The translations under genes were made by a program, and so were the position numbers. The notes below the pieces were generated by a model. It worked only from the letters and a program-made list of their open reading frames with translations. It ran no database searches and was not told where the DNA came from. From an uncultured Thermodesulfobacteriota bacterium (GTDB lineage Bacteria; Desulfobacterota; WTBG01; CAIYCZ01), in the NCBI GenBank assembly GCA_964594075.1, contig CAZQKW010000004.1, positions 38,171-102,170 on the forward strand: DNA of 64,000 nt, read 5' to 3'. Each line of letters starts with the position of its first letter. Positions within the stretch are counted from its first letter, which is position 1. This document shows, piece after piece, positions 32,107-49,422 of the stretch.

Positions 32107-32127
32107 GACCGTATTGTTTTAACTTGT

Positions 32128-33105
32128 TTAAATTCTTATTGAAACCATGCGGTTCATTATATAAATACCCACCGCTATTAACACCAGTGCCCCGACGATC
32201 ATTTTTTTGCCGATGGGATCTTGTATGAGAGAATTTACATAATCAGGGTTTAAGATCCGAATGACGAAAAAGATCAAAAATGGAAGAACCGTTAGTATAA
32301 TAGCAGATATTTTTCCTTCCGCAGATAAAACCCGCAGTTTGTCATTAAATTTAAATCTTTCGCGAATAATATGCGCTATATTGTCAATAATCTCGGCAAG
32401 ATTCCCGCCGGTCTCACGCTGAAGAATGACCGAAACTACAAAAAATTTAACTTCAGCGCAGTCAACACGATAAGCAAGATTTCTCAATGCATCAGCAACC
32501 GGGACGCCAAAATTGATTTCATCCAGCACTTGGGCAAATTCGGGGCCAAGCGGTTCGCCAAAATTATCAACCACCACCTTCATGCCGCTGGTGAACGCAT
32601 GCCCCGCACGCAGCGATCGGGCAATCAGCTCAAGCGCCTCCGGCAATTGTTTTTCAAACTCCTGCAATCGGTTTCTTTTTTTAAGGGAAAGATACAAAAA
32701 AGGAATTATGGCAAACAAAAAAGCTGTAATATAGGATATTCCCAATACTCTGACCGGCAAAATGACACTGCCCATTAAAAAGCCAACCTGCATTAACAAC
32801 AACGAGAGCAAGATAAACACACCGACTGGATACTGCGCATTCGCTTGCTGGATTAATCTATCAAGCCGTTCAATACCGGGAATTTTAAAAAAAATTTTAT
32901 TTAAGAACGGAACATTGCTAAGAAGTCTTTTGCGTAAGATATCCGGCGTATCAATGGAATACTGGGAGAAAGAGAATTTTTTCAGGCGATTCTGAATTTG
33001 TCTGCTCTTAAGCCCACTAATAGACCTGATGCCATATAACACCAGCTCAATAAAAATGATGGTTATTATTGCAAAGAAAATAATTAATCTAAACGGAAGA
33101 TCCAT
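32128..33105 (-). CDS. tadB: Flp pilus assembly inner-membrane protein TadB (T2SS F-domain)
   Basis: GspF-like domain with LRAGHAFTSGMKVV...GVPVADALRNL. Confidence 0.85.
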   Translation of the reverse strand: MDLPFRLIIFFAIITIIFIELVLYGIRSISGLKSRQIQNRLKKFSFSQYSIDTPDILRKRLLSNVPFLNKIFFKIPGIERLDRLIQQANAQYPVGVFILLSLLLMQVGFLMGSVILPVRVLGISYITAFLFAIIPFLYLSLKKRNRLQEFEKQLPEALELIARSLRAGHAFTSGMKVVVDNFGEPLGPEFAQVLDEINFGVPVADALRNLAYRVDCAEVKFFVVSVILQRETGGNLAEIIDNIAHIIRERFKFNDKLRVLSAEGKISAIILTVLPFLIFFVIRILNPDYVNSLIQDPIGKKMIVGALVLIAVGIYIMNRMVSIRI

Positions 33106-33131
33106 AAATTTCCTTAATATGAGACGACACC

Positions 33132-34472
33132 CTATACTTCCAGCACCGTAGTCGGCTCAAACATTTCCCTGGGCAGCGTTATGCCGAATGCCTTGAATTT
33201 CTCTATGAATTTTGGCCGCACCCCGTGAAATACGAATTTTCCGCGCACCCTGCCTTCCGAATCAATGGTCGTCCGCTGGAATGAATAAATTTCCTGCATG
33301 GTTATAATGTCGCCCTCCATGCCGGTGATTTCCTGAAAGCTAATCAGTTTTCGGGTCCCGTCCTGCAAACGGGCAATGTGGATAATAACATTGAGCGCTG
33401 AACTGATGTAGCGGCGCAGGTGGTCAATGGGAATGTCAACATTCGCCATGGCAACCATGGATTCAATGCGCATTAAGGCGTCCCGCGGCGAATTGGCGTG
33501 AATGGTGGTCAACGAGCCTTCGTGGCCGGTGTTCATTGCCTGCAGCATATCAAATGCTTCCCTGCCTCTGACCTCGCCGACAATAATGCGATCGGGCCGC
33601 ATGCGCAGGCTGTTGCGCACCAGATCCCGCTGAGTCACTTCACCCTTGCCTTCAATATTAGGCGGCCTGGTTTCCAGCCGCACCACGTGTTCCTGTTTTA
33701 ATTGCAGTTCTGATGCATCTTCTATGGTGATAATCCGCTCGTCATGGGGAATAAAACGCGATAGAACATTCAGCGTGGTGGTCTTGCCACTGCCGGTGCC
33801 ACCGGAAATCACAATATTCAATTTTGCTTTGACAATGGCCTTAAGTATCTCGCCAATTTCCGGCGTCAAAGTCTGAAGATTAATAAGGTCTTCAAGTTCC
33901 AGCGGGTCCCGGGCAAAGCGCCTGATGGACAAAATGGGACCGTCAATCGCCAGCGGCGGTATGATGGCATTAACGCGTGAACCGTCCGGCAAGCGCGCGT
34001 CAACCATCGGCGATGATTCATCAATACGGCGCCCCACCTGAGAGACAATTTTATCAATAATCCTCATTAAATGTGCGTCGTCTTTAAACCGTGCGTCGGT
34101 GCTTTCCAGCTTGCCAAACCGCTCCACATAGATGTTTTTGTAGGTATTGACCAGAATGTCTGATACCGTCGGGTCCTGCATGAACGGCTCCAGAGGACCA
34201 TACCCCATCACTTCGTCCTGAATTTCAGTAACCAGCAATTCACGCTCAAGTGAATTGAGGGGATAGCTGCTGCGGTCTTCATTAAGGATGCGTTCTACCA
34301 GCGCCCGAATTTGAGATTTGAGCATATCCGCTTCAAGAGTCTCGATTACCGTGAGGTCTATGATATCCAACAGACGGTCATGTATCTGAGTCTTAAGCTC
34401 AAAATACTCCTCAGGTATTTCTCGGCGCGCTGCACGCTTGTCTCTCGCTGCTACCTGTGCGTATGGTTGCAT
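33132..34472 (-). CDS. cpaF: Tad pilus ATPase CpaF/TadA (T2SS/T4SS E-family)
   Basis: Walker [10 protein letters not shown] and [16 protein letters not shown]. Start set at 34472 (MQPYAQ) on the strength of an AGGAG Shine-Dalgarno. Confidence 0.9.
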
Positions 34473-34504
34473 AAAAACTCCTATGCTATTATGTATGTAT
34501 AATG

Positions 34505-35677
34505 TTATGTTGCCGCTTCCCTGCTGTTGAACCACCTGAACAGCTTACTCCGCGATTCTTTCTCAGTTTCCTTTTTTCCTATGATGTTTTCAGCAAGGTC
34601 TTTAAGGTTTTTGGCAATGGGCGAATTAGAGGCAACGCTTGACAGCGGAAGCCCTTGGTTAATAGCGTTCATGGTTGCCCGGTAGTCATTGGGTATCGTC
34701 CAGTAGATATCTTTCTTTATGCCTTCTGCTGCATCTTTCAAAGTAAGATCAGACTGTTTGATATACCGATTGATGATAACCCGAATCCGTTCCGGTTGTG
34801 GATAGCCTATCTCTTTTAAGGAGGAGAGAAGTTTTGAGGTGTTTGACAGGCACGGCAGGCTTAACACCGAAATAATAAAAATCAGATCAGACATTTCAAA
34901 TGCCTTTACCGTGGTGTCGTCTATGGAGGTGCCGGCGTCAATCACTATGAAGTCAAACATTCTCTTTAACAGCGAAAGAATGCGTTCCATTATCTTGGGC
35001 GTGGTTTTTTCCCCTTCCTTCCAATAACTTTCGGAAGGCAACACATAGACCCCGGTGTGATGTTTGGACAGGATGTCCATCAAAAAGGTGGGGTCAAGGC
35101 GGTTTATATGTTTGGTAATTTCGCTCAGGTTATATTTAGGCTTGATTTCCAGAAACAGCGGAATTTCGCCATATAGCCGGTTCATGTCCACCAGCACCAC
35201 CGAGTTTCTGCGTTTCTCCTCGGCAAGTTCCACTGCCAGATTTACCGCAAGCGTGGTGGTTCCCACGCCCCCTTTGCTGCCCAGCAAGGTCAGTATTCTG
35301 CCGAATTTGACCACATCCTTGGGTTTGGCATCTTCCGCCTTCTTTTTAAATGCATCAAATGCCTGTTTTATCTGGCTGGGGTCAATCGGCTGCGCCAGAA
35401 ATTCCTTTGCGCCGATTTTTATGGCGCGCATGAGAATTTCCGGGGCAGGGTTCTTTGCTGTTAGGAATACATCCCCCACCAGGTTCACGTTTTTCAGGGA
35501 TTCTATAAGCTGAAAATCGTTCTCCACCTGGTCACCCAGTTCATAAATCAGCAGGTCCGCTCTTCGCGTGTCATCAGGTCTGAGAATGGCAACGCCCTGA
35601 AATGAGGTAATAACTGCCTCCAGCTCGTTTCTGACCGACGAATTCTTGATTTCAAATTTGACTAAAATATCATTCAT
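34505..35677 (-). CDS. cpaE: CpaE/TadZ: receiver-like N-domain + ParA/MinD-type ATPase
   Basis: Deviant Walker [17 protein letters not shown]. Confidence 0.85.
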
Positions 35678-35696
35678 GGTATCTCTGCTTAATGAA

Positions 35697-36950
35697 TTAA
35701 TTTACCAGAACGGGAATTTTTGCCAGAACGCCAAAGTTATCTCCTCCCGTATTTCCGGTCGGCTCATGCGGCGTGCAATCAGGCAAAAAGTAAATGGTCT
35801 TTTTTTCGCATTCTACCGGACAGCCGGGGGCCGCATTCTGAATGTGAAAATGCGAAAAAAAACTTGCCCAGCTTGCTGCAGCATCCTCGGGGTTTGGCGA
35901 TGTCCATGCGCCATAGTTACCGACTCCGGCCATAGTTACGGGATAATTGGGATCCCTGGGATTATTATTGGGCCGTGTGCAATCATTCTTATTATCTCGG
36001 TGCACCCACAGAACGTTAACTTCAACGACACCAATAATCGGTGCACAATGATCAACGGGGCCTGGATAAGCGTCGCAGCGGATAACGGGCAATTTAATTG
36101 GCCATGGTCTAGTGCCAAACTCGCTATGCTGCAGCCAGCATTCGCGAAAATCTTGGAAAACGTTATCCGTCATGCCATTGATACCACCCATATCCTTACC
36201 CAAAAATAGTGTTTGGGGGTTCCCGTCTCCGCAAACAAGTGGCCTAACAGTTGGTGGGGTCGCCGTTTCGCACGGCTGGGTAAAATTGGTCCACGCGCCG
36301 GTATTGCTGTCGCATGCATTATTGTTACTGTTTATCATTCTGCCCATATTACAGGTATATTTATCATCCTGCGTAATTGCCTCTTTGCAAAGCGAAATGG
36401 GCTGATCCACCCCAAACGGTTCTATGGTGCCGGCAAAACCAATATAGGCGATTGCCTTTGCCTGCATCTGCTGGCTTTCCTTGCCAAATATTCTGGCAAA
36501 ATATAACGTTGCCGGTATACTCGCCCTCTGGGTGTAAACCCTTACCGCGTTAATAAATGCTGGGTTTGCGTCAAGCTCAGCAAAACTGACATCCCACAGT
36601 GCCGTCTGCTCGAGCGCATTGTTTGGCGTGAATGTTTTTGTTGCAAAGCTCCAGTGGCCCCGCTCAACTGATGCTACTTCAACATCTTCTTTTTCACTTT
36701 TGTTATCTATTGCCGCATTCCGCGCTATTTCATTTGCACCGGGGTTTATGCTTCCGTCCTCATTAAAAAGTTTTAAAGCGCCTGCCAATGCCCCCGCATC
36801 AGCTGCGTTCTGCAACTCATTACGCACCACATAAAGATGACCTATATCCACCGCAAGAGCGGTAAACCCGACAAAAATCACCAGGCACAATGCAACCAAT
36901 GCAGCAACCGCTCCCCTCTCATCAGTTACGATGTGCTTAAATTGTTTCAT
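35697..36950 (-). CDS. TadG-like pseudopilin/pilus assembly protein
   Basis: N-terminus RGAVAALVALCLVIFVGFTALAVDIGHLYVVRNELQNAADAGALAG is typical of TadG. Confidence 0.7.
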   Translation of the reverse strand: MKQFKHIVTDERGAVAALVALCLVIFVGFTALAVDIGHLYVVRNELQNAADAGALAGALKLFNEDGSINPGANEIARNAAIDNKSEKEDVEVASVERGHWSFATKTFTPNNALEQTALWDVSFAELDANPAFINAVRVYTQRASIPATLYFARIFGKESQQMQAKAIAYIGFAGTIEPFGVDQPISLCKEAITQDDKYTCNMGRMINSNNNACDSNTGAWTNFTQPCETATPPTVRPLVCGDGNPQTLFLGKDMGGINGMTDNVFQDFRECWLQHSEFGTRPWPIKLPVIRCDAYPGPVDHCAPIIGVVEVNVLWVHRDNKNDCTRPNNNPRDPNYPVTMAGVGNYGAWTSPNPEDAAASWASFFSHFHIQNAAPGCPVECEKKTIYFLPDCTPHEPTGNTGGDNFGVLAKIPVLVN

Positions 36951-36986
36951 TTACATCACCTCGTTTCTAAACTTGAACGGTTTTTA

Positions 36987-37529
36987 TTATTCTTCCGGCT
37001 GACATTCTGTTCTCATTTGTGTTACCGCAGAAAGTGTTATGGGCCCTGACAAAGAACCGCCAAAGAATGCTCCCAGAATATTTGGCAGCAGAAGAAAATT
37101 ATAATCAAATGTCACGGTCACTCTTCTATAATACTGACCATCTGCAGTTGGCACCATACCCGTAGTGGTAACCGACGGAGTTTTGGAGCCGGAAAAGTTA
37201 ATTAAATAATTTGCGCAGTAGCTGCGCACTACTGTTTCGACATCCGATGGGGAAATCATACGACAAGTACCCACTCCCGCTACACCATTAGGGGGATGGG
37301 TATATAGTATCGCTGTTCTGGCGCCTTCACGGCTGGCATTGGTAATGACCGCTTTGTTATAAAACAGTATCCCAAACTCAATAATGCCGAAAATAAAAAG
37401 CAACAACAGCGGCAGCACAATCGCAAACTCAACCGCTGATGCGCCCTTCTGGCATTTTAAACCTGTCTTATCTTTCACGTCATACCTCACGTATTCAAAA
37501 TTATTGTTATTGCTGGCCATAGATGCCAA
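36987..37529 (-). CDS. TadE/TadF-like pseudopilin
   Basis: QKGASAVEFAIVLPLLLLFIFGIIEFG TadE motif. Confidence 0.75.
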   Translation of the reverse strand: MASMASNNNNFEYVRYDVKDKTGLKCQKGASAVEFAIVLPLLLLFIFGIIEFGILFYNKAVITNASREGARTAILYTHPPNGVAGVGTCRMISPSDVETVVRSYCANYLINFSGSKTPSVTTTGMVPTADGQYYRRVTVTFDYNFLLLPNILGAFFGGSLSGPITLSAVTQMRTECQPEE

Positions 37530-37806
37530 ATCCCAATGTCCCCATGCGTTGAGCGCCGCTCGTCTGGCCTGCTTTTCCCGTAAAGCTTTTCACATATTGC
37601 CCCAACGCCGCTTCTGCAGCCTGACCGTGAAGCCCTTTGACCGGCTCAAGATTTTTGGAAGCATCGGGGTTGAATGTCTGCCCCTGTTTTTGTGCATAGT
37701 ATGCAGTGCCCCAGTTATCCGCCACCTTTGACGGGGTTGCACACGCGCCGCACACCAATGCTGCTATGGTTAACAAAATCACCGACAAAACAATGCGTGA
37801 TGTATT
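37507..37806 (-). CDS. small exported protein in tad locus
   Basis: Signal peptide MNTSRIVLSVILLTIAALVCGACA. No recognisable family. Confidence 0.4.
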   Translation of the reverse strand, partial: NTSRIVLSVILLTIAALVCGACATPSKVADNWGTAYYAQKQGQTFNPDASKNLEPVKGLHGQAAEAALGQYVKSFTGKAGQTSGAQRMGTLGFGIYGQQ

Positions 37807-37890
37807 CATGGCTGCCACTCCTTATATTTTTATTATTATATTTATTATTGAGGTAATTGCAAAAGTATTCAAAAATGGGATTACAGAGTT

Positions 37891-37956
37891 TCGCTCGCAA
37901 TGACAAATGGCGTCTGTGCGGTCATTGCGAGGAGAATAGCGACGAAGCAATCTCAA
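37891..37956. repeat. REP-like element, degenerate inverted pair (within tad locus intergenic)
   Basis: TCGCTCGCAATGAC ... GTCATTGCGAGGAGAATAGCGACGAAGCAATCTCAA. Confidence 0.45.
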
Positions 37957-38058
37957 TAAATGAAACTTTTGCAATTGGCTCTCATTGTATAAGTATTATC
38001 GTTTAATTCAAGCGTTTCTTTACCTGTCTCTCTTGCCGCTGTCTCGTGACTCATCCTT

Positions 38059-39486
38059 TTAGTTCATCGGCACAGCGTGCCCGAACTCACCGTCAAGCCT
38101 GCCTTTGGTATTTGAAGAAGGCGGGCAGGCTCTTCCTTCCAGCATCCCCAGCACATAGAATTCAAAATCATCCGGCTCCACAAAAAAATCTGTCGGCAAC
38201 GGCTGTTTGGCAGTGTCAAGTGGCTTTACCAGGCGCGGGGTAACAATAATTACCAACTCAGTTTCATTGCGTCTGAAATTTTGGCTGCGGAACAGTTGCC
38301 CGAGAATCGGTATGTCTCCCAACGCAGGGTATTTTGCAGCGTTTTCCCGCATATTTTCAGACAAAAGTCCGGCTATCGCAAAGCTCTGACCGTCGGCAAG
38401 TTCAACATTTGTTGAAGCGCTGCGGGTAGTTAGCCCTGGAACCACAAACCCCTGAATTGCCACTGCAGTTGAGTAATCCAGCTCAGACACCGACGGGGTT
38501 ACTTTAATATTTATTTTATTTTCGCTTAATACCGTCGGCGTGAACGCAAGCTCTACACCGTATTTCTTATATTCAATACCCACGGTTCCCAGTCCCTGTG
38601 GAATCGGCACCGGGTATTCGCCGCCGGCTAAAAACTGGGCATTTTGCCCGCTCAAAGCGATGAGCGTCGGCTCTGCCAGAACCTTTATCATTCCGTCGTC
38701 CCGCAAGGCATCAATGAGGGTAGTCCAAGAGGAACTGCCCCGGTTGAAACGGAATAACAGATTCGATGCAGGGGACGCAAAAAAACTGAGTAAACCGCTT
38801 CTCGCATCTGGCAGATTCCCTTCGCCTTCCTGAGCTAAGGTGCCGATCTGATTAAGCAATCCGATACCAAACTCTTCCTTATTGCGGTAGATGATATTGA
38901 AACCAAGTTCACGGGTGAGCCGTTTTGACATTTCCGCGACCCGCACCTCAAGCATAACCTCCTGCACACCCGAAACTTCCACCTGATTTCTGATCTTTCC
39001 TTTTGGGGCATACGCCTCGGCAACCGATAAAATCTGCGCAAGATTTGCCGCGCTGGAAACTCTGCCGGCAAGTATGATGGAATCATCGCCGGAGATGATC
39101 CGCAGCTCCTGTTCCTCGGGAAGTACCTGATTGAGCTTTTGTTTTAGCTTGGTGATGTCATAGCCCACGTGCAGGTCATAAATTTCGGTAATTTTGTTCC
39201 CTTCCCAGATGGTGAGATTACTGGTGCCGGGCGATTTGCCAGTGAGGTAAATCTCGCGCGGCGAAATCATCAAAAAGTCGGCGATTTTAGGTTCTGCAAT
39301 GGAAATACGGCTTATCGCCCGCGTGCTGCGAATGGTTACCGAACTGCCCACTGCCACTTCCAGCGTTTTATGCTGACGCGTGTCAACGGTGATTGCAGCG
39401 TCTAACAGCGCGGGCATACACAAGGCAAGTATAATCAAAACACAAAGCGTCCATTTCTTTATGGCAGATACAGGTATTGTGCTCAT
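38059..39486 (-). CDS. cpaC: Tad secretin CpaC/RcpA (BON + secretin domains)
   Basis: Signal peptide and C-terminal secretin signature GQSFAIAGLL...PILGQLFRS...ELVIIVTPRLV. Confidence 0.9.
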   Translation of the reverse strand: MSTIPVSAIKKWTLCVLIILALCMPALLDAAITVDTRQHKTLEVAVGSSVTIRSTRAISRISIAEPKIADFLMISPREIYLTGKSPGTSNLTIWEGNKITEIYDLHVGYDITKLKQKLNQVLPEEQELRIISGDDSIILAGRVSSAANLAQILSVAEAYAPKGKIRNQVEVSGVQEVMLEVRVAEMSKRLTRELGFNIIYRNKEEFGIGLLNQIGTLAQEGEGNLPDARSGLLSFFASPASNLLFRFNRGSSSWTTLIDALRDDGMIKVLAEPTLIALSGQNAQFLAGGEYPVPIPQGLGTVGIEYKKYGVELAFTPTVLSENKINIKVTPSVSELDYSTAVAIQGFVVPGLTTRSASTNVELADGQSFAIAGLLSENMRENAAKYPALGDIPILGQLFRSQNFRRNETELVIIVTPRLVKPLDTAKQPLPTDFFVEPDDFEFYVLGMLEGRACPPSSNTKGRLDGEFGHAVPMN

Positions 39487-39503
39487 GCAAACCCCTCCTT
39501 ATT

Positions 39504-40346
39504 TTAGAATCCCTGAGTGGTTACTTTGGTGCCTCTTATTTCTTTGACGGTTATTGGCTCGCGGCGGCTGAGTACCTGAGCCTGTTTTTCCTGACCTTTT
39601 ATTTTTACGGTTTTACCGGTATATGATTCAAGAGTTTCCGGAACCGTAGCTCCGTCGGTCAAGACAATCTCCGTATCCATGGCATTGCGCAACGCCAACT
39701 GCAGTTTGCCCTCGGTGGCGGCAAGGGCAAGTTTCTCGCCTTCTTCCGGGGTTACCTCAAGGGTAAAGACATCCACCGGTGAGGGCTCGCCTTTTTCATT
39801 CTTTTGAATTTCAGCACCGGTTGCCAGCACCAGGATATTTTCAAGAATTACTTTGGTAACCTGCTTCTTGTCGCGCGGATCTTCTATGCTGACCAGCACA
39901 TCAACGATATTTCCGGGCCTGATGAGACCAGCAAGCCCGATAACTTTATCACCCTTGACCGCGATTGCCCGTTTGCCGGTTTTTACCACCGCCGCCATGC
40001 CGCCGGCAGTAACGGTGGCAGGGGCAAGCTTGGTCTCCAGCACCGGTTCGTTGGCTTTTAACGGCTGAATGGTAACTCTGCCTTCAAGTTGATTGAGGTC
40101 GCTGAAATAACCGGGAGGAAGCGTTTCCTTGAGGTAGGGCACAAGGCGCAACTGCTCTTTAGTTATCTTGGTGCCCCAGGGCAAATCAATTGCTGCCGAA
40201 GCGATCATGACCGTTTCTTTCTCCGGGGCAACCTTGGGAGGCCCGATTTGCCGTTTTACCCAGTTGTAGGTAAAAACGCCTCCGATGAAGGCTATAAACA
40301 CAGCGAGAATGATTGGTAAAATTGCTTTCCAGATTCCCATAATCAA
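39504..40346 (-). CDS. cpaB: Flp pilus assembly protein CpaB/RcpC (SAF domain)
   Basis: N-terminal TM helix, SAF-like domain, 280 aa. Confidence 0.85.
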   Translation of the reverse strand: MIMGIWKAILPIILAVFIAFIGGVFTYNWVKRQIGPPKVAPEKETVMIASAAIDLPWGTKITKEQLRLVPYLKETLPPGYFSDLNQLEGRVTIQPLKANEPVLETKLAPATVTAGGMAAVVKTGKRAIAVKGDKVIGLAGLIRPGNIVDVLVSIEDPRDKKQVTKVILENILVLATGAEIQKNEKGEPSPVDVFTLEVTPEEGEKLALAATEGKLQLALRNAMDTEIVLTDGATVPETLESYTGKTVKIKGQEKQAQVLSRREPITVKEIRGTKVTTQGF

Positions 40347-40448
40347 CCCCCTTTGCTAAAGTTGATAATGTTACAAAACGCAACTCTACAAAACGCAACC
40401 CTAATTTATGTTATGTTAAAAACATATCTGTTAAACGCTTCGCCCCCT

Positions 40449-40474
40449 AGATTCTTCGCTGCGCTCAGAATGAC
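40449..40474. repeat. REP-like 26-bp element
   Basis: AGATTCTTCGCTGCGCTCAGAATGAC. Confidence 0.65.
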
Positions 40475-40495
40475 AGCGAGAGGCATGCTTCACCA

Positions 40496-41053
40496 TTAAA
40501 TGGGCAACTTATACTGTGCCGCTTTAAGCCCCATCGTTAGCAACGCGCCCAGCGCAATGGCAACCCCGTAACACAGCTTGGGCGGCTTTTCGTCTTCCGC
40601 TGCCGGTATCGGAATGAAGTTGCCGGTCCATACCAGTGTTTTTACGGTTGCGGTAATCCGTTTAAGCACCTTTTTACTTGCTTGAAAACGCACCAGTATA
40701 ATGAAGACGGCATAGATGCCACCGATAATTCCAGTAAACAAGAAGGCGTTGAGGACATTTTTGGGTCCGAGCACCGCGCCTACTGCTCCCATGAGCTTGA
40801 CATCTCCAGCACCCATAGCTCCAAACACATAAAAAATACCCAAGGTTATCAAACCCGTTAGCAAACCGACGACGCTAAAAAACAAACCATGTATTCCGTT
40901 ATAAAAAAAATTGTAGGTGAATGCAATAATAATGGTAGGATATGTAATAAGGTTGGGTATTTTTCTAATAAAGAGATCTATGATTGCGGCAACTATTAAG
41001 ATACCGGCCAAAGCATACATTAAATAACAATCCATTGCAGACTGTTCAGCCAT
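40496..41053 (-). CDS. tadV: prepilin peptidase TadV/CpaA (A24 family)
   Basis: IIDLFIRKIPN Asp motif, GAMGAGDVKLMG motif, multi-TM. Confidence 0.8.
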   Translation of the reverse strand: MAEQSAMDCYLMYALAGILIVAAIIDLFIRKIPNLITYPTIIIAFTYNFFYNGIHGLFFSVVGLLTGLITLGIFYVFGAMGAGDVKLMGAVGAVLGPKNVLNAFLFTGIIGGIYAVFIILVRFQASKKVLKRITATVKTLVWTGNFIPIPAAEDEKPPKLCYGVAIALGALLTMGLKAAQYKLPI

Positions 41054-41239
41054 TTTACCCCCGCTTTTGCCTTTTGTGCTAATCGGCCGGATTTGATATT
41101 TTGTTGATTATCTTGGATATTATGTTAATTAAATTAAAACTCTGCTTGAACAATTGAAAAGTATTAAAACTTAACCTGTCTTCGAGTATCATAATTTTTT
41201 AAAAAATACAGGAAAAGTTTTCGCAGAATTTTTTTGTGC

Positions 41240-41413
41240 TTAACTCCCGGCGTTCATTACCTCTGTTGCCGTAGAATCAAATAAGGTGCTCAAGTTTTGT
41301 CCAAGGAGAGTAACAGCTGCAAGAATAATGACCGCAATAAGCGCTAACATAAGACCATACTCTACTGCAGTCGCTCCATCTTCGGCACGATAGAATTTTT
41401 TGAGGCTATCCAT
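41240..41413 (-). CDS. flp: Flp-family type IVb pilin (57 aa), not in ORF track
   Basis: Hand translation: MDSLKKFYRAEDGATAVEYGLMLALIAVIILAAVTLLGQNLSTLFDSTATEVMNAGS. It carries the Flp motif G/ATAVEYGLM. Confidence 0.85.
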   Translation of the reverse strand: MDSLKKFYRAEDGATAVEYGLMLALIAVIILAAVTLLGQNLSTLFDSTATEVMNAGS

Positions 41414-41427
41414 ATGGATTCCTTTTT

Positions 41428-41458
41428 ATATAAACTTCCCCTATCACTTTTAATGATA
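41428..41458 (-). terminator. inter-pilin hairpin (putative attenuator/terminator after flp2)
   Basis: CTTCCCCTATCA-CTTTTA-TGATAGGGGAAG perfect 12-bp stem, followed on the minus strand by a U-rich run. Confidence 0.4.
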
Positions 41459-41488
41459 GGGGAAGTTTTGTGTATGGGTTAATTGCTA

Positions 41489-41662
41489 TTACTGACCTGC
41501 CTGTCCTACCTCGGTTGCAACTGAATCAAATTTTGTGCTTAAGTTCTGACCGAGCAAGGTGACAGCTGCGATGATCACGATCGCAATTAAGGCTACCATA
41601 AGCCCATATTCAACTGCGGTAGCTCCTTCTTCATCACGAAAGAATTTTTTTAAGCGTTCCAT
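41489..41662 (-). CDS. flp: Flp-family type IVb pilin (57 aa), not in ORF track
   Basis: Hand translation: MERLKKFFRDEEGATAVEYGLMVALIAIVIIAAVTLLGQNLSTKFDSVATEVGQAGQ. Shine-Dalgarno GGGAGAA. First gene of the tad operon. Confidence 0.85.
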   Translation of the reverse strand: MERLKKFFRDEEGATAVEYGLMVALIAIVIIAAVTLLGQNLSTKFDSVATEVGQAGQ

Positions 41663-42058
41663 AATTTTCTCCCTTTTAAAAATTGTTTGTGTTTAAATAA
41701 TAGAAAACCAAAAAACCATTTGTCAACTAATTTTTTCACCTCCTTTCTAAAATTATTTCCAATAAATCATTAAAAAATGTTTCTTGCCATATATTATCGT
41801 AAAAAAAATTTTTAATGTCAATTGAAATCTTTGCAGGCATTTTTTACATTTTTTAAAAAAATAAACTTATTTACCAGGTAAAAAATGGCTTTGTATTGAC
41901 CCAAAACCATTTAATCATACCTTTGTAACCTGACTCTCTAAAGCTACTATCTCATTCAACAATGAACTGCAGTGATTATTAAAACATAAAGTGCTGTAGA
42001 TCTGGTGGCGCAATGGCAATCTTTTAAAACTTAAATGCGCACAGGCTGTTGAAAAGGT

Positions 42059-42084
42059 GTCATTCTGAACGAAGTGAAGAATCT
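42059..42084. repeat. REP-like 26-bp element (reverse orientation)
   Basis: GTCATTCTGAACGAAGTGAAGAATCT. Confidence 0.6.
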
Positions 42085-42364
42085 CAACTTTAGCACGGCT
42101 TGGCAATTCAAAAAGGTAAGACTGAATCCCGCATCACACCCTTAGTCCTATCACGTTTTTCAACAAGCCGATAAACGGTAACAGGTTTAATATGGTCGCA
42201 TAAAAAAATTCAATGTTTTTAATTATAGGTTTAACTTTATTAAATGCAAGGGCAAAATTTTTATTTTGTTTGTAATAAGAAGAAGAAAAATGGCCATAGA
42301 AAAAAATATATGTATTAAATCATCTTTTAGGAATTTTCCTGATTTCATCAATTCAAGGAAAGTG

Positions 42365-43855
42365 TTAATCAAAGGAACGGCTAAAAAGGGCGGCACCAGA
42401 ATCACTATATATTTGTTTCCAGCCAAATTCTTTATTCAAGGCGCCGGACAGTTTAGACCCATTTTTTATAAGTATCAAGTTGGGCGGATACCTGGTTAGA
42501 AAGTCCTTCCAGCCTCGCCGGCAAAAAATGAAATCAAAGTATTCTCTGGTTATGCGTTCCGGGTAAACCTGTTCATATCGACCATCAAGAGAAACACGAC
42601 AAAGGGGGTGCAGTTCCCAAATTAGATATTCTCCCCAATGAAACTCAGTTAATATGTTTCCGGACAACTCCTGTTCTTTGATATAATTAACTGCACCTGA
42701 TGGATAAAAAACGCTAAATTTTTTATCTTTATTTGGCTGCGAAGGAAGTGTCAGGCTCATGGGGTTCTGATTTATAATTTTTACCGTCAAAATGAGCGCC
42801 AACACTACAGCGCAAGCTGTGGGGGTTTTCCAGCCGATGCGATCCTGAATCCCTCTAATTAACACATCCGATTTCATTGCATTTAAAAAGTCTGACAGCC
42901 AGACCGGCATATAGGCACCGGCAAGCAACAGAAAAAAACAAATATGCCGTTGCTGTTTCAGCCCTAAAAAGAGGGTTAAACCTAAAACCAGATAGACTGT
43001 CAGTTCGCGCGGTTTACGCCATAATAATAGCAGGACTAAAAAAATAATTATGAACAGTATATAAATAATCGCGAAATTGTTTAATACGCCGTATTTGTAT
43101 CCCGCGTAAACAGAGAACCATTCGATTAGCTCTGGACGGGGCATTGGCAAAGATCGAGCAAAAAAACGCCAGTACTCAATGCCGTATGGATTTATAAGCG
43201 TTGCAAGAGATGAAAAGACGAGAACCATGACATACGGGACAAACGGTTTGCGGGCTATTGCTTCCCCTGCTGCATATAAAGCAAGCAGTCCAAGCCCAAC
43301 CAAGAAGCCGCCGTGCAGGTTACACCACAATATCTGAGTGGGAATTATCCACCATAAAATCTGCCATCGTCTTGTTGTTCGGGTAGTTTCCAACAAATAA
43401 AGCGTCACGGCAAAGAAAAAAAAAGTAAAAATCTGTGCTCTGACTGGACTGTACCCAAAATCAAGTATGCCGCCGATTGCAATTAAAATAAGTACGGCTG
43501 AATAGTAGTTGGCACCGCGTCTTACCGCAGTTAAAAATATAAACCCCATGGTTGCCAGCCCAATGCTGTATTTAAGCAACTGCAAGGCGGCAGCCCCAAA
43601 TTTCTGATACAGCGGGAAAAAAAGCACCCCGGTAAGCCACTCATGAAAAACCCACGTATCATGCGTCGGAAGGTAGGCAAAAATATCTTTATATGGGAAC
43701 TTGCCGGTTTCCCAGAACAGCCTTCCAAACGTCAGGTAGCCCCACAAGTCTACATCTGCGACTGTGTAAGTCAGAACATAGGCAGCAAACACCAGATACA
43801 ATAACGAGAGAACGGTTTTTTTAACTAAATCTATGAAGTTATTTCCAACCTGCAT
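42365..43855 (-). CDS. polytopic membrane protein, putative GT-C-type glycosyltransferase (family uncertain)
   Basis: About 12 TM helices, then a roughly 150-aa C-terminal soluble domain. Confidence 0.45.
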   Translation of the reverse strand: MQVGNNFIDLVKKTVLSLLYLVFAAYVLTYTVADVDLWGYLTFGRLFWETGKFPYKDIFAYLPTHDTWVFHEWLTGVLFFPLYQKFGAAALQLLKYSIGLATMGFIFLTAVRRGANYYSAVLILIAIGGILDFGYSPVRAQIFTFFFFAVTLYLLETTRTTRRWQILWWIIPTQILWCNLHGGFLVGLGLLALYAAGEAIARKPFVPYVMVLVFSSLATLINPYGIEYWRFFARSLPMPRPELIEWFSVYAGYKYGVLNNFAIIYILFIIIFLVLLLLWRKPRELTVYLVLGLTLFLGLKQQRHICFFLLLAGAYMPVWLSDFLNAMKSDVLIRGIQDRIGWKTPTACAVVLALILTVKIINQNPMSLTLPSQPNKDKKFSVFYPSGAVNYIKEQELSGNILTEFHWGEYLIWELHPLCRVSLDGRYEQVYPERITREYFDFIFCRRGWKDFLTRYPPNLILIKNGSKLSGALNKEFGWKQIYSDSGAALFSRSFD

Positions 43856-43903
43856 TTTCCTAAATTACCGGAAGAGTTTTACTGCGCATCAAAACAGACC
43901 GTG

Positions 43904-45559
43904 TTATGTCTCTATCTTATAAAGGAAGACTGCCATATACCAAATTCCCTGGCCAAACCTGTTACTACTCCCCCGAAAGGTGAAAGGCCAGCTCTTTTCT
44001 AGTCGCAGATAATTGGCAGTGCCACTGCCAAATAGCTTGTCCGCAAGCTGTTTCAGTTCTTTGTCCTCGCCATTCTCAATAAGGCCATGATTTACCAAAT
44101 AGGCAATACCCTGCTTTTTCAGCAGCTCTCCGGCGGTTCCATGTTTTAGGGCATTCGCATAAACTATGGAGTTTACCACCCCATCAATATTGATTATTTT
44201 CTGGGAGGTAAAATAGCCAATGACGCCTGCATCCCAGGATCCAAGAATGGCATTTGGGGACAGATTTTTTGAAATCCACTCGCCGGCTTTTTGATTAGTA
44301 ATGCACATGGAAAGGAATCGTGGATCAACCACACTCGAATTCATTGCAATCACACACAGAGCTAATGGCGCTGAGATGACCAATTTAACTTTTATCAGCG
44401 AAGATTTATGTGGTTGATACCGCAAATCATCCTTTCTGGCAGTGTTAAAGATATCAATGACAGCACATAAAAAGATGAGAAAAACATAGAGCACAAGGGG
44501 GCCAAAATACCAAAGCTGCGGAAAGACTTGCATAATGGTGTAATACACAATAATCAGACAGCAAAACACTGCAAACCACCACGTGCGATTGATAAATTGT
44601 CTTAGACAGGGGAAGTTCGTTTTATTCTTCTTTGCCGGCAGATTAAACCTTGAAGCATGTTGTGTAGGCAATTTGCCCCAGTTTTTAAAAAGCCTTCCGA
44701 TTATGCCGGAAAGGAGCAGGCCGACTGCAAGAACACCTGTCCTGCTGAGCGTTAAAGGAATGCGTTTTATTTCACCGCTAACCTGCCACGGACTTCCAAA
44801 GGTATTATAATTAAACAGAATAAATAGAACAACAGCAGCCACAGGCAGGATAAAAAGCTCTGCAAGGCGACCCAATGATTTGAACCCTAATGAGACTGCC
44901 TCAAGCAGACAACAGATTCCTAAACAAATTAATAATAATACGGCATCGGTCCGCGATAGAAAGCAAAGCATCCCTATTCCGCCCACTAGTATCCGCCAGC
45001 GTGGAGAAGTATCAGACAAAAACCTACTCTGTCTTATTATTGATTGGAATAGCAGAAAAGTATAACAGAGGGCATAAGCCGCTGATTCCAACCCATTTAC
45101 AAATGTTCTTAAAAATAAAGGGCTGGCAGCTAACATTGCAAACAAAACCCAGATTGTTCTAAATGCATTTTTTGAGCGCGATGCATATGCTGACGGATCT
45201 ATTTCAGGTTGGCTCTGTGAAATTATGATATTAATGATATGCCCCATTATCAAACAGACGCATAGCCACAGAATAATTTGGCCGGACAACAAAATGCGTA
45301 CTGCGGTCAGCCCATCGAAACCGAACCAGTAAACAGGAATACATATAAGCAACCAGAGAGGATGAAATCCATTGGTCGGATTTATTCTATCAAAAGTAAA
45401 GCCATATCCCTGCGCTACATTGCGGGCAATTTCAAAATAATAAAAAGCATCATCAAAACAGAGAACATACGGTGTATATTCCCAGAGCCAGATCGCCAAT
45501 AGCCATCCACAATAAAGTGAAAGTAAAATTAAATAAAATTTCTTAGTAAAGACTGTCAT
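43904..45559 (-). CDS. polytopic membrane protein, putative GT-C-type glycosyltransferase (paralogous architecture to upstream gene)
   Basis: N-terminal DDAFYYFEIARNVAQGYGFTFD-like first-loop motif as in the ArnT/PMT/PglL class, many TM helices, and a C-terminal soluble domain. Confidence 0.5.
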   Translation of the reverse strand: MTVFTKKFYLILLSLYCGWLLAIWLWEYTPYVLCFDDAFYYFEIARNVAQGYGFTFDRINPTNGFHPLWLLICIPVYWFGFDGLTAVRILLSGQIILWLCVCLIMGHIINIIISQSQPEIDPSAYASRSKNAFRTIWVLFAMLAASPLFLRTFVNGLESAAYALCYTFLLFQSIIRQSRFLSDTSPRWRILVGGIGMLCFLSRTDAVLLLICLGICCLLEAVSLGFKSLGRLAELFILPVAAVVLFILFNYNTFGSPWQVSGEIKRIPLTLSRTGVLAVGLLLSGIIGRLFKNWGKLPTQHASRFNLPAKKNKTNFPCLRQFINRTWWFAVFCCLIIVYYTIMQVFPQLWYFGPLVLYVFLIFLCAVIDIFNTARKDDLRYQPHKSSLIKVKLVISAPLALCVIAMNSSVVDPRFLSMCITNQKAGEWISKNLSPNAILGSWDAGVIGYFTSQKIINIDGVVNSIVYANALKHGTAGELLKKQGIAYLVNHGLIENGEDKELKQLADKLFGSGTANYLRLEKSWPFTFRGSSNRFGQGIWYMAVFLYKIET

Positions 45560-45713
45560 AAATTATAGTGAACTATTTATTTAATCATCCAGAAATAAAA
45601 GGCAGAACCATTGCTGACTCTGCCTCGTTCTTTTTTTGTCCTACCTCTTTACCTTTTAATCAATCCACATTTTTCGACCTACCTTACCAAAGCACGCATA
45701 ACGATTACCCTGT

Positions 45714-47105
45714 TTAACACTCCGGTTCACACTGGGGCTGGCCGCAGCCGCCGCAACCGGGGTCAACGTCGCACACATCGCCAACGCCGTCGTTATCCGC
45801 ATCCATTTGTTGCGCATTGCAGTTATCCGGGCAATTGTCGCAGCTATCGGGCACGCCGTCACCGTCCCGGTCTGGAAACACACAGTCACCCAGAGCAAAC
45901 GGGGTGGCAGGAGGAATAATAACATCCACCGGAAGGGAACTGTCAATTATTGTATTATTGCCAAGCTGCCCTTCAGAATTATCGCCCCAGGTTTTCATGG
46001 TGCAGCCCGCAGGAATCGCCGCAGTATGAAAATTTCCGGCGCCAATGCTGATGGCAGCGCCGATGTTCAAAACCGCTACCGGCACTTTTCTCAAGGTCTG
46101 GGTGCCGTCGCCAAGCTGGCCATCGGAATTCAGACCCCAGGCCCATACCGTGCAGTCGCTCCTGAGCGCTGCTGAATGATACTTTCCCGCAGCGACCGCC
46201 TCGACATTACTTAACGTGCTGACTTTTACTGGCATGGTTTTATTGGTGAGGGAATTGATGCCAAGCTGCCCGCTTTCATTGAGCCCCCATGCCCAGACGG
46301 TTTTGTCAGCCTTGATAGCCAGATTATGCCACCCGCCGGCTGCAAGCGCCACAACGCCGGTAAAGCCACCGCCGCCGGCATCAAGGACCTGCACCGGAGC
46401 TAATCGGGTAGTGGTGGTATTGTCTCCAAGCTGTCCGTATTTATTAACACCCCATGCCCAGACCGTGCCGTCGCTTTTAAGCGCAATGCTGTGAAATGTG
46501 CCGGCACCTATTGCTACGACCCCGCTCAGCCCGCTCACCTGAGTTGCTTTGGTTTTGTCTCGGGTTGACCCGATGCCAAGCTGCCCATAATTATTGCGTC
46601 CCCACGCCCAAACCGTGCCGTCACTCTTTAATGCCAGCGAGTGATATTCGCCGCCTGCGATCGCAACCACCCCGCTCAAACTGCTTACGACCACCGGTGT
46701 TGTTTTGTCTTTTGTGGTGCCGTCGCCAAGCTGCCCATAAAGATTTGATCCCCATGCGCGGACGGTGCCATCGCTTTTAAGCGCCAGCGTGTGAAATGAA
46801 CCGGCAGCAACTGCGACAACACTGGTCAAACCGCTCACCTGCACGGGTGTCAGTTTGTCTATGACTGTCCCGTCGCCAAGCTGGCCGGAGGCATTTGCAC
46901 CCCACGCCCAGACCGTGCCGTCGCTTTTAATGCTTACTGTGTGCCATTCCCCGCCTTCCATCATGGGCTCTGACTGCGCCCATGCCGGGCCGGCTGCAAA
47001 AATGCCCAGCACGAAATAAAAGGACATGATTATGCAGCACATTGTTTTTAGTTGAATGGACCTGCTATGTTTCATAAACGGTGCCCTCCTTTGAAAGGGG
47101 TACAT
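45714..47105 (-). CDS. secreted RCC1-repeat beta-propeller protein with C-terminal thrombospondin type-3 Ca-binding repeats
   Basis: Seven units of AWGxNxYGQLGDGT (RCC1). C-terminus DRDGDGVPDSCDNCPDNCNAQQMDADNDGVGDVCD (TSP3-like). Has a signal peptide. Confidence 0.8.
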   Translation of the reverse strand: MYPFQRRAPFMKHSRSIQLKTMCCIIMSFYFVLGIFAAGPAWAQSEPMMEGGEWHTVSIKSDGTVWAWGANASGQLGDGTVIDKLTPVQVSGLTSVVAVAAGSFHTLALKSDGTVRAWGSNLYGQLGDGTTKDKTTPVVVSSLSGVVAIAGGEYHSLALKSDGTVWAWGRNNYGQLGIGSTRDKTKATQVSGLSGVVAIGAGTFHSIALKSDGTVWAWGVNKYGQLGDNTTTTRLAPVQVLDAGGGGFTGVVALAAGGWHNLAIKADKTVWAWGLNESGQLGINSLTNKTMPVKVSTLSNVEAVAAGKYHSAALRSDCTVWAWGLNSDGQLGDGTQTLRKVPVAVLNIGAAISIGAGNFHTAAIPAGCTMKTWGDNSEGQLGNNTIIDSSLPVDVIIPPATPFALGDCVFPDRDGDGVPDSCDNCPDNCNAQQMDADNDGVGDVCDVDPGCGGCGQPQCEPEC

Positions 47106-47156
47106 AAAGATTGCGGTATTGTTGAGGTGTTGAGTTCTCCATTGGTTGCTAACTCA

Positions 47157-47222
47157 AGATTCTTCGCTGCGCTCAGAATGATAAGTATTATCCCGGAGAT
47201 TCTTCGCTGCGCTCAGAATGAC
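47157..47222. repeat. REP-like element, two direct copies 15 bp apart
   Basis: AGATTCTTCGCTGCGCTCAGAATGA occurs twice. Confidence 0.7.
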
Positions 47223-47361
47223 CAAAAGGCAATGAAGGGAAAGCAATTTTGGGTTTTGTTCATTATACGCCTGTTGCTTTACTATGGTCAAATGTAATCT
47301 TGGCAGGTCTTTGCCACTATCAGCATCAAATAACAGGTTTTGAGAGGCTCATGCGGGCACT

Positions 47362-49422
47362 CTATCCCGCCGACCCCAGGGAAAACATGCTCTGCTTTTG
47401 CTCCATGATTTTTTTAACTTCCTGCAGGAGCGAATTCAAACTGAACGGTTTGAAGAGAATGCCGTCAGCAGTTGCCTTTAACATATCCGTTCCATCAGTA
47501 TGGCCCGTGGTAATGAGAATGCGCACACACGGATCAATGCCGCGCAGACACTTCATACATGATTTACCGTCCATGACCGGCATGGACATGTCAAGCATCA
47601 CCAGATCAATCCCGTTGCCGTTTTCCCGAAGTTTTTTATACAGCTCTATCGCTTCCTGACCATTGGCAGCCTCGCTCACCTGATACCCTGCTGTGGACAG
47701 CAATTCCTTTGCTATTTCGCGCAATTGCGGCTCGTCATCAACCACCAGTATGTGTTCGCCGGCCCCGACCGCGTTAAAACTTTCAATTTCCGGGGCGACT
47801 TCTTCTTCATACACTTCTTCCTCAACCGGCAGATATATTTTAAAACAGGTTCCCCTGTGGAGTTCGCTTTCGACCGCAATATGCCCGCCATAATTCTTGA
47901 TTATGGAATATACAATGGCCAGTCCCAGGCCGGTTCCTTTTCCCGGTTCTTTAGTGGTGAAAAACGGATCAAAGATATGTTCCATGACATACTCCGACAT
48001 GCCTTTCCCCGTATCCACGACTTCGATGAGGACATAGTGCCCGGGGTGCTGCAGGGAGTTGGCCATGCAGTAGGATTCATCAAGCTCTGTGCGCCTGGTT
48101 CTAATGGTCAGTGCGCCGCCGTCAGGCATGGCATCGCGGGCATTGACCGCAAGATTGAGCAGCACCTGTTCAAGCTGATTGCTTTCCGCCCGGATAAACG
48201 GCAGATGGGGCTGGAGGTCTATGTTCAGTTCAATCTGCGGAGGAAGCGTCTGCCGGAGGAGGCGATGCATGCCGTCCACCAAATGTTTTATTTTCACCAG
48301 CTTCATTTCCCCGGTTTCGGAGCGGGAGAAGGCAAGCATTTTGCGGGTCAGACCGGCTGCCCGTTGACAGCTTACGTCAATGTCATCAATATAGACCGAG
48401 AGCGGATTATCCGTTTCAATCTTCATTTTCATAAGCTGCACATAACCCTGAATGGCTGCCAGGATGTTGTTAAACTCATGCGCCATGCCGGCTGCCAGCG
48501 TTCCGACTGCTTCCAGCTTCTGGGAGCGTTGCAGTTGGATCTGCAGTTGCTCTTTTTCGGTTATGTCCTGCAGGGTTTCAATGGCGCCGATGACGTTGCC
48601 CTTTTCATCACGCAGCCGCGCAGCCAGAAAGTAGATATTTTTCTTGACTACCCCGCCGATGGTCAACTGGTCTGCGGCTTCATACGCCTCTGCTATGGCA
48701 TGGCTGCGAAACAGCTTTTTTTCGCGGTAAAATTGCTGCAGGGCATTTTCGTCCATATCAAGAACCAGATCGGCAAGCGCCGGCATGTTTTCATTCTGAT
48801 AAAATATCTGACGGTTCAGGGGCCTGCCCAGTGCCACCTGTTTGATGATACCGGTCAGGTTTTCGCAGGCGCGATTCCAGACCACGACATTATGGTCCAA
48901 GTCAATAACAAAGGTAGGAATCGGGCTTCCATCAAGAATAATTTCCAGTCGCTGCCGCTCCTTGATAACCGCTGCCTCGGCGCTACGGCGCTCGGCGATT
49001 TCCTGCTGCAGTTTATCCGTTAACTCCAGCAGTTCCATGGTGCGCTCCTGAACCCGGCTCTCCAATACCTGATTCACGCGTTTAATTTCCTGATCTTTCT
49101 GCCAGGTGGCGCCAATGGTAGAAGCAAACTCATGGGCAAGAATGCCCAGTTCGTCACGCCGTTTGACCGAGATAATGGCGTCAATGGCTTCCCGTTTGCC
49201 TAAGCGTGATTGGATGGAAAATTTAGTGATGAGATTGGTCAGGGTGATAATGGGACTGATGATAACATGATAAAATATTAAAAAAAGCGCTGCCGAGAGA
49301 AACAGCCCGACGCCCAAAACCGGACCAGCGAGATATAATTTTTTATATAAGAAGCCAATACCAGCTAAATATAATATAAAATTAATGCAAATTATTATGA
49401 TAAGTTTTTGTCTCAGTTTCAA
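47362..49422 (-). CDS. hybrid sensor histidine kinase (TM/HAMP, PAS, HisKA, HATPase_c, C-terminal receiver)
   Basis: H-box [14 protein letters not shown]-box GTGLGLAIV and a C-terminal REC domain (VVDDEP...[11 protein letters not shown]). Confidence 0.85.

Follow-up and report, generated by a model that had tools for sequence, protein, structure and literature searches.

Two predicted GT-C membrane proteins encoded beside a flp/tad pilus locus of an uncultured Thermodesulfobacteriota bacterium: candidate pilin glycosyltransferases

Why would a Flp/Tad pilus locus be preceded by genes for two long polytopic membrane proteins? The question is raised by a 64,000-nucleotide stretch of contig CAZQKW010000004.1 from an uncultured Thermodesulfobacteriota bacterium (the window, meaning the whole stretch of DNA that was analyzed). 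The initial annotation had placed two such proteins at 42365-45559 and suggested that they might be GT-C glycosyltransferases with a possible role in pilin O-glycosylation. Open reading frame (ORF) calls fill this interval exactly: it is fully occupied by two minus-strand ORFs, here termed geneB and geneA in order of transcription and spaced by 48 bp, whose source annotation is hypothetical. Both products are very probably GT-C glycosyltransferases. The best explanation of the whole, to which we give about an even chance, is a two-gene unit of GT-C enzymes that use a lipid-linked donor, with geneA probably glycosylating pilin. The two genes and the motifs discussed below are as follows:

43904-45559, minus strand: geneB, first of the pair; 551 amino acids (aa), predicted GT-C fold, ~11 transmembrane (TM) helices plus a periplasmic C-terminal alpha/beta domain
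45389-45454, minus strand: geneB motif DDAFYYFEIARNVAQGYGFTFD in the first periplasmic loop, residues 36-57
44225-44239, minus strand: geneB SWDAG, residues 441-445, C-terminal domain
42365-43855, minus strand: geneA, second of the pair; 496 aa, predicted GT-C fold, STT3/AglB-like architecture
43748-43756, minus strand: geneA D34-V-D36, start of the first periplasmic loop
42626-42643, minus strand: geneA F405-H-W407-G408-E-Y410, C-terminal domain

The first part of the answer comes from structure prediction. AlphaFold2 models of the two proteins, with predicted local distance difference test scores of 92.6 and 92.0 and predicted template modelling scores of 0.92 and 0.91, clearly adopt a GT-C fold, and the geneA model in particular is a miniature STT3/AglB-like architecture. 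In Foldseek searches with geneA, yeast and human STT3 were the top matches (E ~1e-5, query TM-score 0.59-0.69), followed at lower ranks by DPY19 and AglB and then by ArnT and PglB; Pmt4 was also among the best structural matches. Hydropathy, AlphaFold2 secondary structure, and the Lys/Arg distribution (positive-inside rule) indicate approximately 11 TM helices in each protein, a predicted cytoplasmic N terminus, and a predicted periplasmic C-terminal domain of ~135-140 aa, in agreement with the previously proposed 11-13 helices and soluble C-terminal domain. Both C-terminal domains are mixed alpha/beta in the models and appear to be small, periplasmic, and AglB-like.

The GT-C assignment thus stands by fold, but not by sequence families. 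Neither protein matched any Pfam-A or NCBIfam model at E<=0.1, including the PMT (PF02366), PMT_2 (PF13231), and ArnT profiles, and searches with 60 geneA and 63 geneB relatives revealed no consistent family: a weak PMT_2 match was seen in just one relative of each set. STT3 (PF02516) was matched by neither protein and by none of these relatives. Wzy_C (PF04932) gave no Pfam match and was absent among the structural matches, and no relationship to PglL appeared. The first-loop motif that had been described as ArnT/PMT/PglL-like is indeed present at residues 36-57 of the 551-aa geneB, but its resemblance to PglL was not found; the protein that carries it, listed as the second of the pair, is the first one transcribed. 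Paralogy between geneA and geneB could not be demonstrated (hhalign probability of 0.2%), and matches of geneA to Scone and PQQ beta-propellers in PDB-profile searches were dismissed as short repeats. By sequence comparison, therefore, geneA and geneB are two distinct families that have no curated Pfam or NCBIfam model.

The pattern of conservation in both families looks like that expected of a GT-C active site. Across 60 geneA homologs, the residues that are invariant or at least 90% conserved are D34, D36, D57, H71-E72-W73, R139, Q141, E156, W177, N179, H181, N222-P223-Y224-G225, R240, E245-W246, R303, F405, W407-G408-E409-Y410, and D424-G425-R426. Nearly all of them, including D34, D36, D57, H71-E72-W73, R139, N179, H181, N222-P223, E245-W246, R303, W407-G408, and D424-G425-R426, are kept in members from other phyla with 27-30% identity, and both D34 and D36, each conserved in at least 90% of homologs, persist down to 27% identity. 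Across 63 geneB homologs, the invariant residues are D36-D37, Y40-Y41, D57, T62-N63-G64, H66, W69, G156, E158, R203, D205, Q259, S261-G262, W350, D443, G445, G460, and N490. The conserved residues of both proteins map to predicted periplasmic loops or to the C-terminal domain, and acidic residues in the first extracytoplasmic loop, a GT-C feature, are present and conserved in both families. These residues bear on whether the proteins are enzymes at all. The two could conceivably be non-catalytic GT-C-fold scaffolds, like PIG-U/GAB1 of the glycosylphosphatidylinositol transamidase, that aid pilin handling or pilus assembly; however, the acidic and polar residues of the periplasmic loops are invariant, including the Asp pair typical of catalytic GT-C enzymes, and genes for donor synthases of glycosyltransferase family 2 (GT2) co-occur with the family, which makes a scaffold role extremely unlikely.

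In both models, a candidate for the WWDYG motif of STT3-type enzymes is located after a beta-strand, at the start of a helix. When the geneB-family profile was compared with the PDB, the top two matches were AglB-S C-terminal domains (E 0.39 and 0.49, not significant), and this alignment puts S441-W-D443-A-G445 onto WWDYG. The hhalign comparison of the two families, with its probability of 0.2% likewise not significant, places F405-H-W407-G408 of geneA in the same register. The geneA family keeps W407 and G408 without exception and has D, E, N, H, or G at position 406. SWDAG in geneB and F-H-W-G in geneA may correspond to WWDYG, a lead that comes from non-significant alignments.

If the two proteins are glycosyltransferases, what do they modify? 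The nearest candidates are encoded by the genes that follow them:

41663-42364, minus strand: AT-rich intergenic region between geneA and flp1, 702 bp, 29% GC
41489-41662, minus strand: flp1, 57-aa Flp prepilin (PF04964, E 6.5e-19), mature form ATAVEYGL...GQNLSTKFDSVATEVGQAGQ, the proposed acceptor
41240-41413, minus strand: flp2, 57-aa Flp prepilin (PF04964, E 7.5e-14)
28431-41053, minus strand: remaining tad locus

The two neighbors are genuine Flp pilins, and the tad locus behind them is real and complete: flp2 is followed by genes for an A24 prepilin peptidase, CpaB/RcpC, a secretin, TadE, a TadG-like protein, CpaE/TadZ, CpaF/TadA, TadB, TadC, and a TPR+LysM protein. Because geneA, geneB, flp, and the tad genes all lie on the minus strand, the pair is situated upstream of the AT-rich region and of flp in the sense of transcription, and not downstream of a flp promoter region, as it had first been described.

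The family to which geneA belongs is large. Searching its profile against 1.84 billion representatives retrieved 4,755 clusters (at 50% identity) at E<=1e-30, 19,056 at E<=1e-10, and 28,336 at E<=1e-3, and scanning a single genome of each GTDB species for a pattern confirmed at least 553 relatives. Desulfobacterota, Planctomycetota (Brocadiaceae), Acidobacteriota, Omnitrophota, Verrucomicrobiota, Chloroflexota, Melainabacteria, Binatia, and Gammaproteobacteria are represented among the matches listed. The proposed co-occurrence with tad loci was borne out for this gene: its adjacency to tad/flp genes is kept across genomes, in five different arrangements. It lies upstream and in the same direction in the window, in L001/L002 (83% identity), in L007, which is the same as L012 (51%), and in L026; five polytopic genes precede six flp genes in L007, among them a geneA paralog, a weak PMT_2 match, and GT87. 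It is divergent in Desulfobacca acetoxidans (L004, 51%) and in an Acidobacteriota metagenome-assembled genome (MAG; L082, 30%), directly downstream of the tad operon in L006 (59%) and in a Brocadiaceae MAG (L018, 46%), convergent in L013, and embedded among tad genes in L034. In L018, genes for a GT2 enzyme and a methyltransferase are found between the tad operon and the geneA homolog.

At loci without tad genes, the geneA homolog often comes after type IVa pilin genes and shares their strand. In Syntrophales the order is a pilin, two TPR-bearing polytopic proteins, the geneA homolog, and two GT2 (L022); three pilins, two TPR-bearing polytopic proteins, a methyltransferase, the geneA homolog, GT2, and another TPR-bearing polytopic protein (L027); or a pilin, a PMT/PMT_2 protein, the geneA homolog, a methyltransferase-GT2 fusion, and one or more TPR-bearing polytopic proteins (L031 and L032). 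Elsewhere, the geneA homolog comes after three pilins in a gammaproteobacterial MAG (L040), after PilB-like genes, PilC, and three pilins in Omnitrophota (L052), and after PilB, PilC, a PilS/PilR-like regulator, and a pilin in L081 and L085. The commonest neighbor in the family is a ~247-aa GT2 (PF00535, E 1.7e-23; 12 loci); other recurrent ones are methyltransferases, PMT/PMT_2, GT87, and TPR-bearing polytopic proteins, the last of which (cluster c7, Syntrophales loci) have an F-D-D motif after TM1 and a TfpW-like architecture. The association with pilin or tad genes is strongest at 43% identity to geneA or more. As far as comparative genomics goes, a link between geneA and pilins is clearly supported.

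The same cannot be said of geneB, and the pilin role proposed for the pair holds up for one gene better than for the other. Its family is broad as well (of 600 pattern matches in metagenome contigs, 572 proved to be relatives), and the near-orthologs do share the arrangement of the window: L001 has the RCC1-repeat gene, geneB, geneA, and flp in this order, and L170 (72% identity) has a histidine kinase, GT87, a PAP2 phosphatase, the RCC1 gene, geneB, and geneA before the contig ends. In L090 (70% identity), geneB comes after a gene for an AAA ATPase of 460 aa, with 78% identity to the one embedded among the tad genes of L034. However, homologs at 35-44% identity occur in unrelated contexts, including Planctomycetales (L008), Acidimicrobiia, and sites downstream of an AMP-binding enzyme (L009 and L010). 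Across 80 metagenome loci of the geneB family, no tad machinery genes were detected. The link of geneB to pilins thus appears weak, tad genes being associated with near-orthologs only, and we consider it rather doubtful that this protein acts on pilins. Judging from the loss of the tad link at 35-44% identity and from a fusion to a polysaccharide deacetylase in one relative, geneB appears to come from a general-purpose GT-C family and to have been recruited here. Two distant members with 25-26% identity (L109 and L113) have genuine Flp genes 3.8 kb downstream (at ~15110 and ~15155, respectively); within 10 kb of either we detected no further tad genes, and these Flp genes look like orphans.

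There are also hints of a pentofuranose donor in part of the geneB family. The L090 ortholog faces a UbiA-like prenyl-phosphate transferase gene (3776-4651, minus strand), which, from its NDxxD motif, we take to resemble decaprenyl-phosphate phosphoribosyltransferase. UbiA-like genes are also present near six distant geneB members (L122, L129, L132, L137, L138, and L151).

How much weight can the neighborhoods bear? A uniform screen for pilin signal-peptide motifs, combined with tblastn searches using the Tad proteins of the window, detected a pilin or tad gene within 10 kb at 15 of 79 geneA genome loci versus 3 of 80 geneB-family metagenome loci (Fisher p = 0.0025); the comparison set, whose three positives are real pilins and whose contigs are shorter, is an imperfect negative control. 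This is one of several points that weigh against a pilin role. Conversely to the positives, 64 of the 79 geneA-family loci have neither a pilin nor a tad gene within that distance, and the D. acetoxidans geneA homolog also borders a kds/lpt lipopolysaccharide (LPS) cluster (kdsA/kdsC/lptCAB). No tad or pilin genes lie near the geneB homologs with 35-44% identity (L008, L009, L010, and L171), and P0015, the relative that carries the polysaccharide deacetylase fusion, may point to an acceptor of glycan nature. Within the window, tblastn searches for GT2 and UbiA-like proteins revealed no GT2, UbiA-type donor synthase, or flippase gene. By the promoter scan flp apparently has promoters of its own, and its joint transcription with geneA is conjecture. 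Finally, the Caulobacter Tad pilus structure has no extra or glycan density (PMC10710030); the literature that we searched held no other Tad pilus structure.

Much of this would fit a reading in which the pair would be glycosyltransferases for envelope glycans or lipids, of the ArnT/AftB/GT136 type, acting on LPS, exopolysaccharide, or peptidoglycan-linked polymers or lipids. The proximity of tad genes would then reflect co-regulated surface remodeling or chance. This applies especially to geneB, since its relatives are mostly found away from pilus genes, the deacetylase fusion occurs in its family, and its 70%-identical ortholog sits beside the UbiA-like gene; the LPS cluster in D. acetoxidans and the many geneA-family loci without a nearby pilin gene argue in the same direction. 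On the other hand, the best structural matches of geneA (STT3, AglB, DPY19, and Pmt4) are protein-modifying enzymes, and its adjacency to pilin genes recurs in at least five arrangements, with two unrelated pilin classes, and in several phyla. Several loci are tight same-strand strings of pilin, GT-C, and GT2 genes, which are hard to explain without a pilin role. On balance, we regard an envelope function for both proteins as unlikely, if worth serious consideration, and put the chance that geneA acts on pilins at slightly better than even.

Some members of the families occur in settings of other kinds. Distant geneA members form two or three tandem paralogs at loci without pilin genes (L056, L057, L069, L073, and L087), together with a 505-aa polytopic protein that has no Pfam match and a gene that looks like a methyltransferase; this suggests that such clades have other acceptors. 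Within or beside Desulfobaccales tad loci we also noted a family of AAA-type ATPases (435-490 aa, Walker A motif GPAGNGKT, no Pfam match). It adjoins geneA or geneB homologs in L004 (8579-9961), L006 (14520-15773), L034 (9853-11160), L050 (11303-12778), and L090 (29-619) and is absent from this window.

The genes on the other side of the pair offer a different candidate acceptor:

45599-45626, minus strand: terminator-like hairpin between the RCC1-repeat gene and geneB (12-bp stem, then a T run)
45714-47105, minus strand: secreted RCC1-repeat/TSP3-repeat protein (Pfam), directly upstream of geneB
47362-49422, minus strand: hybrid histidine kinase

The RCC1 protein has seven RCC1 repeats, a Cys-rich TSP3-repeat C terminus, and a signal peptide; it may be an adhesin or offer another target for glycosylation. 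The enzymes might thus glycosylate secreted or periplasmic proteins other than pilins, namely this protein, Tad components, or a broad range of targets, the last of which would resemble general protein O-glycosylation systems. The order RCC1-geneB-geneA is kept in the window, L001, and L170, the RCC1 protein has its signal peptide, and the GT-C enzymes that geneA resembles modify proteins, the C-mannosyltransferase DPY19 among them. However, the more distant geneA loci linked to tad or pilin genes lack the RCC1 gene, the hairpin separates it from geneB, and the recurrent companions of the geneA family are pilin genes rather than RCC1. We therefore hold such targets to be quite unlikely. A 432-aa ORF (47725-49023, plus strand), antisense within the hybrid histidine kinase gene, is probably spurious.

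Assuming that the acceptor is a pilin, which residue would be modified? The window pilins both carry an N-L-S-T sequon, with N-L-S at the same place in both pilins of L001, and because geneA looks like an oligosaccharyltransferase (OST), we counted sequons against shuffled sequences in pilins whose genes adjoin family members, 15 of the Flp and 13 of the type IVa class. The Flp pilins had 8 sequons where 4.6 were expected (P = 0.07; the sequences are not independent), and 7 of the 15 had none; the type IVa pilins had 14 where 17 were expected, and again 7 of the 13 had none. With sequons neither conserved nor enriched, N-glycosylation found no support as a property of the family. This also bears on a more specific proposal, that one or both proteins are minimal AglB/PglB-type N-OSTs acting on the Asn of the Flp N-L-S-T sequon. 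The STT3/AglB-like fold and C-terminal domain of geneA would suit such a role, as would the shared position of N-L-S in the window and L001 pilins and the alignment, not significant, of SWDAG in geneB with WWDYG. Yet several pilins have no sequon, neither protein matches the STT3 model of Pfam, both have ~11 TM helices instead of 13, the WWDYG motif is not strict, and the profile and hhalign alignments behind its correspondence are not significant; taken together, N-OST activity is very improbable. Because N-sequons are not conserved, O-linkage to Ser or Thr is our guess as the likelier and simpler alternative. The pilin tails had been said to contain Ser and Thr; Ser plus Thr make up 14-27% of the exposed C-terminal third of the window pilins, but the tails themselves are not Ser/Thr-rich. 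In the wider set, exposed pilin parts typically contain 12-32% Ser plus Thr, and the Flp pilins of L026 and L082 are at or near zero.

Donor, acceptor, linkage, and catalysis itself we infer along the following lines. GT2 enzymes are the usual makers of polyprenyl-phosphate sugar donors, as in the pairs ArnC/ArnT, GtrB/GtrC, and Dpm1/PMT. Three-component GT-C systems are treated in PMC11127046. Here, a GT2 encoded elsewhere in the genome would charge undecaprenyl phosphate with a sugar in the cytoplasm, and the product would be flipped across the membrane. At the periplasmic face geneA and geneB would transfer the sugar by means of the acidic and polar loop residues and the AglB-like C-terminal domain. 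For geneA, the most likely acceptor would be pilin, specifically the exposed C-terminal segment of membrane-anchored Flp1 and Flp2, glycosylated, probably on Ser or Thr, before or while the Tad pilus is assembled and ahead of the step in which the machinery draws the pilin out into the fiber. The geneB product might add a second sugar, use a second site, or serve another envelope acceptor. A still wider proposal takes the large geneA family as a whole to consist of minimal STT3/AglB-like GT-C enzymes, so far undescribed, that glycosylate Flp/Tad and type IVa pilins, with geneB as an accessory; we offer it as tentative, its chance falling somewhat short of even.

Are geneB and geneA expressed together, and with flp? 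Since the terminator-like hairpin precedes geneB, the signals suggest that the pair forms its own transcription unit. In L001, the orthologous locus, geneB and geneA abut with zero gap; on this ground and on that of the transcription-unit signals, we treat them as a putative bicistronic unit beside a separately promoted flp operon, with read-through possible. Two sigma-70-like promoters (41821-41793 and 41726-41697; 11/12 matches each) are located just upstream of flp1. No terminator-like site was found after geneA, no sigma-54 -24/-12 match upstream of flp or geneB, and nothing in an Rfam scan of 41000-47500. The spacer between geneA and flp1 contains long A/T runs, and its L001 counterpart is only ~410 bp long. 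A perfect TATAAT occurs 3 nt before the ATG of geneB (45560-45600, minus strand), with no Shine-Dalgarno sequence, and the N terminus is conserved in L090; the geneB transcript may have no leader or only a very short one. The GC content of geneB (41.5%) and geneA (42.8%) is low against 48.8% for the window, 47.6% for the tad genes, and 55.8% for the RCC1 gene; the composition of membrane proteins or acquisition by horizontal transfer might account for this. The tad locus closes with a gene (28431-31121, minus strand) for an 896-aa TPR-repeat protein with a terminal LysM domain; as a TadD-like component, this protein would be unusually large and would carry a module for peptidoglycan binding.

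We found no glycosyltransferase assigned to Flp/Tad pilins in the literature searched; Flp of Aggregatibacter was reportedly described as modified in older work. Pilin glycosylation alters adhesion, aggregation, and antigenicity, and in Pseudomonas it changes resistance to pilus-specific phages (bioRxiv 10.1101/150227). If the proposed role of geneA is true, this would be the first dedicated glycosylation enzyme proposed for Flp pilins, and thousands of "hypothetical" membrane proteins would gain a function. Glycosylated Tad and type IVa pili would be predicted in Desulfobacterota, Planctomycetota, Acidobacteriota, Omnitrophota, and other phyla, and small OST-like enzymes would become available for studies of GT-C evolution and acceptor recognition and possibly for glycoengineering. 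Desulfobacca acetoxidans (L004) is a cultured carrier of the locus.

How do the two proteins compare with known systems? With STT3/AglB/PglB (GT66), the best overall structural matches for geneA, they share the GT-C(A) fold, acidic residues that open the first external loop, and possibly, from non-significant alignments, [W/F]-[D/N/H]-x-G in the place of WWDYG. They differ in that PF02516 is missing from ~120 family members, WWDYG is degenerate, ~11 TM helices are predicted versus 13, and their lengths are 496 and 551 aa versus ~590-870 aa. Furthermore, the candidate acceptors have no conserved N-x-S/T sequon, and the GT2 neighbors would point to donors of the monosaccharide-phosphate kind, not to diphosphate-linked oligosaccharides. 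Archaea N-glycosylate their pilins and archaellins through AglB, and the Tad system is thought to be of archaeal origin; it is speculation that an AglB-like enzyme paired with Tad could echo AglB-dependent pilin glycosylation in archaea.

ArnT (GT83) and PMT/PMT_2 (GT39) resemble geneB in the first-loop D-[D/E]-x-aromatic...A-R motif and would resemble both proteins in using a polyprenyl-phosphate monosaccharide donor; however, the C-terminal domain here is AglB-like, neither ArnT-like nor MIR, and significant PMT, PMT_2, or ArnT matches in Pfam are lacking. Known pilin glycosylation enzymes are of two kinds, the Wzy_C type (PglL, TfpO/PilO, TfpM, and PglS) and the GT-C enzyme TfpW. PglL, TfpO, and PglS are also polytopic and glycosylate pilins on Ser/Thr, and tfpO adjoins pilA, but they belong to a different fold family.

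TfpW, the arabinofuranosyltransferase of the P. aeruginosa group IV type IVa pilin (bioRxiv 10.1101/2020.04.19.049825), is likewise a polytopic GT-C protein encoded beside the pilin gene whose product it modifies, with a first-loop Asp pair, a large C-terminal domain on the periplasmic side, and a polyprenyl-phosphate sugar donor of the kind that geneA and geneB would use. Unlike them, it ends in a TPR domain and carries YX6PFX7P, a proline-rich motif, in a late periplasmic loop; no TPR was matched by Pfam in geneA or geneB, and a regular-expression search found the motif in neither. The likely target here is also a Flp pilin, not a type IVa pilin. By described features, the TfpW architecture, with its DDx motif in loop 1 and its TPR domain at the C terminus, is matched instead by the TPR-bearing polytopic neighbors of geneA homologs, and geneA would therefore be a different partner family. 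Thus, geneA and geneB appear to be like TfpW in their adjacency to pilin genes and like a miniature AglB/STT3 in shape, and members of neither.

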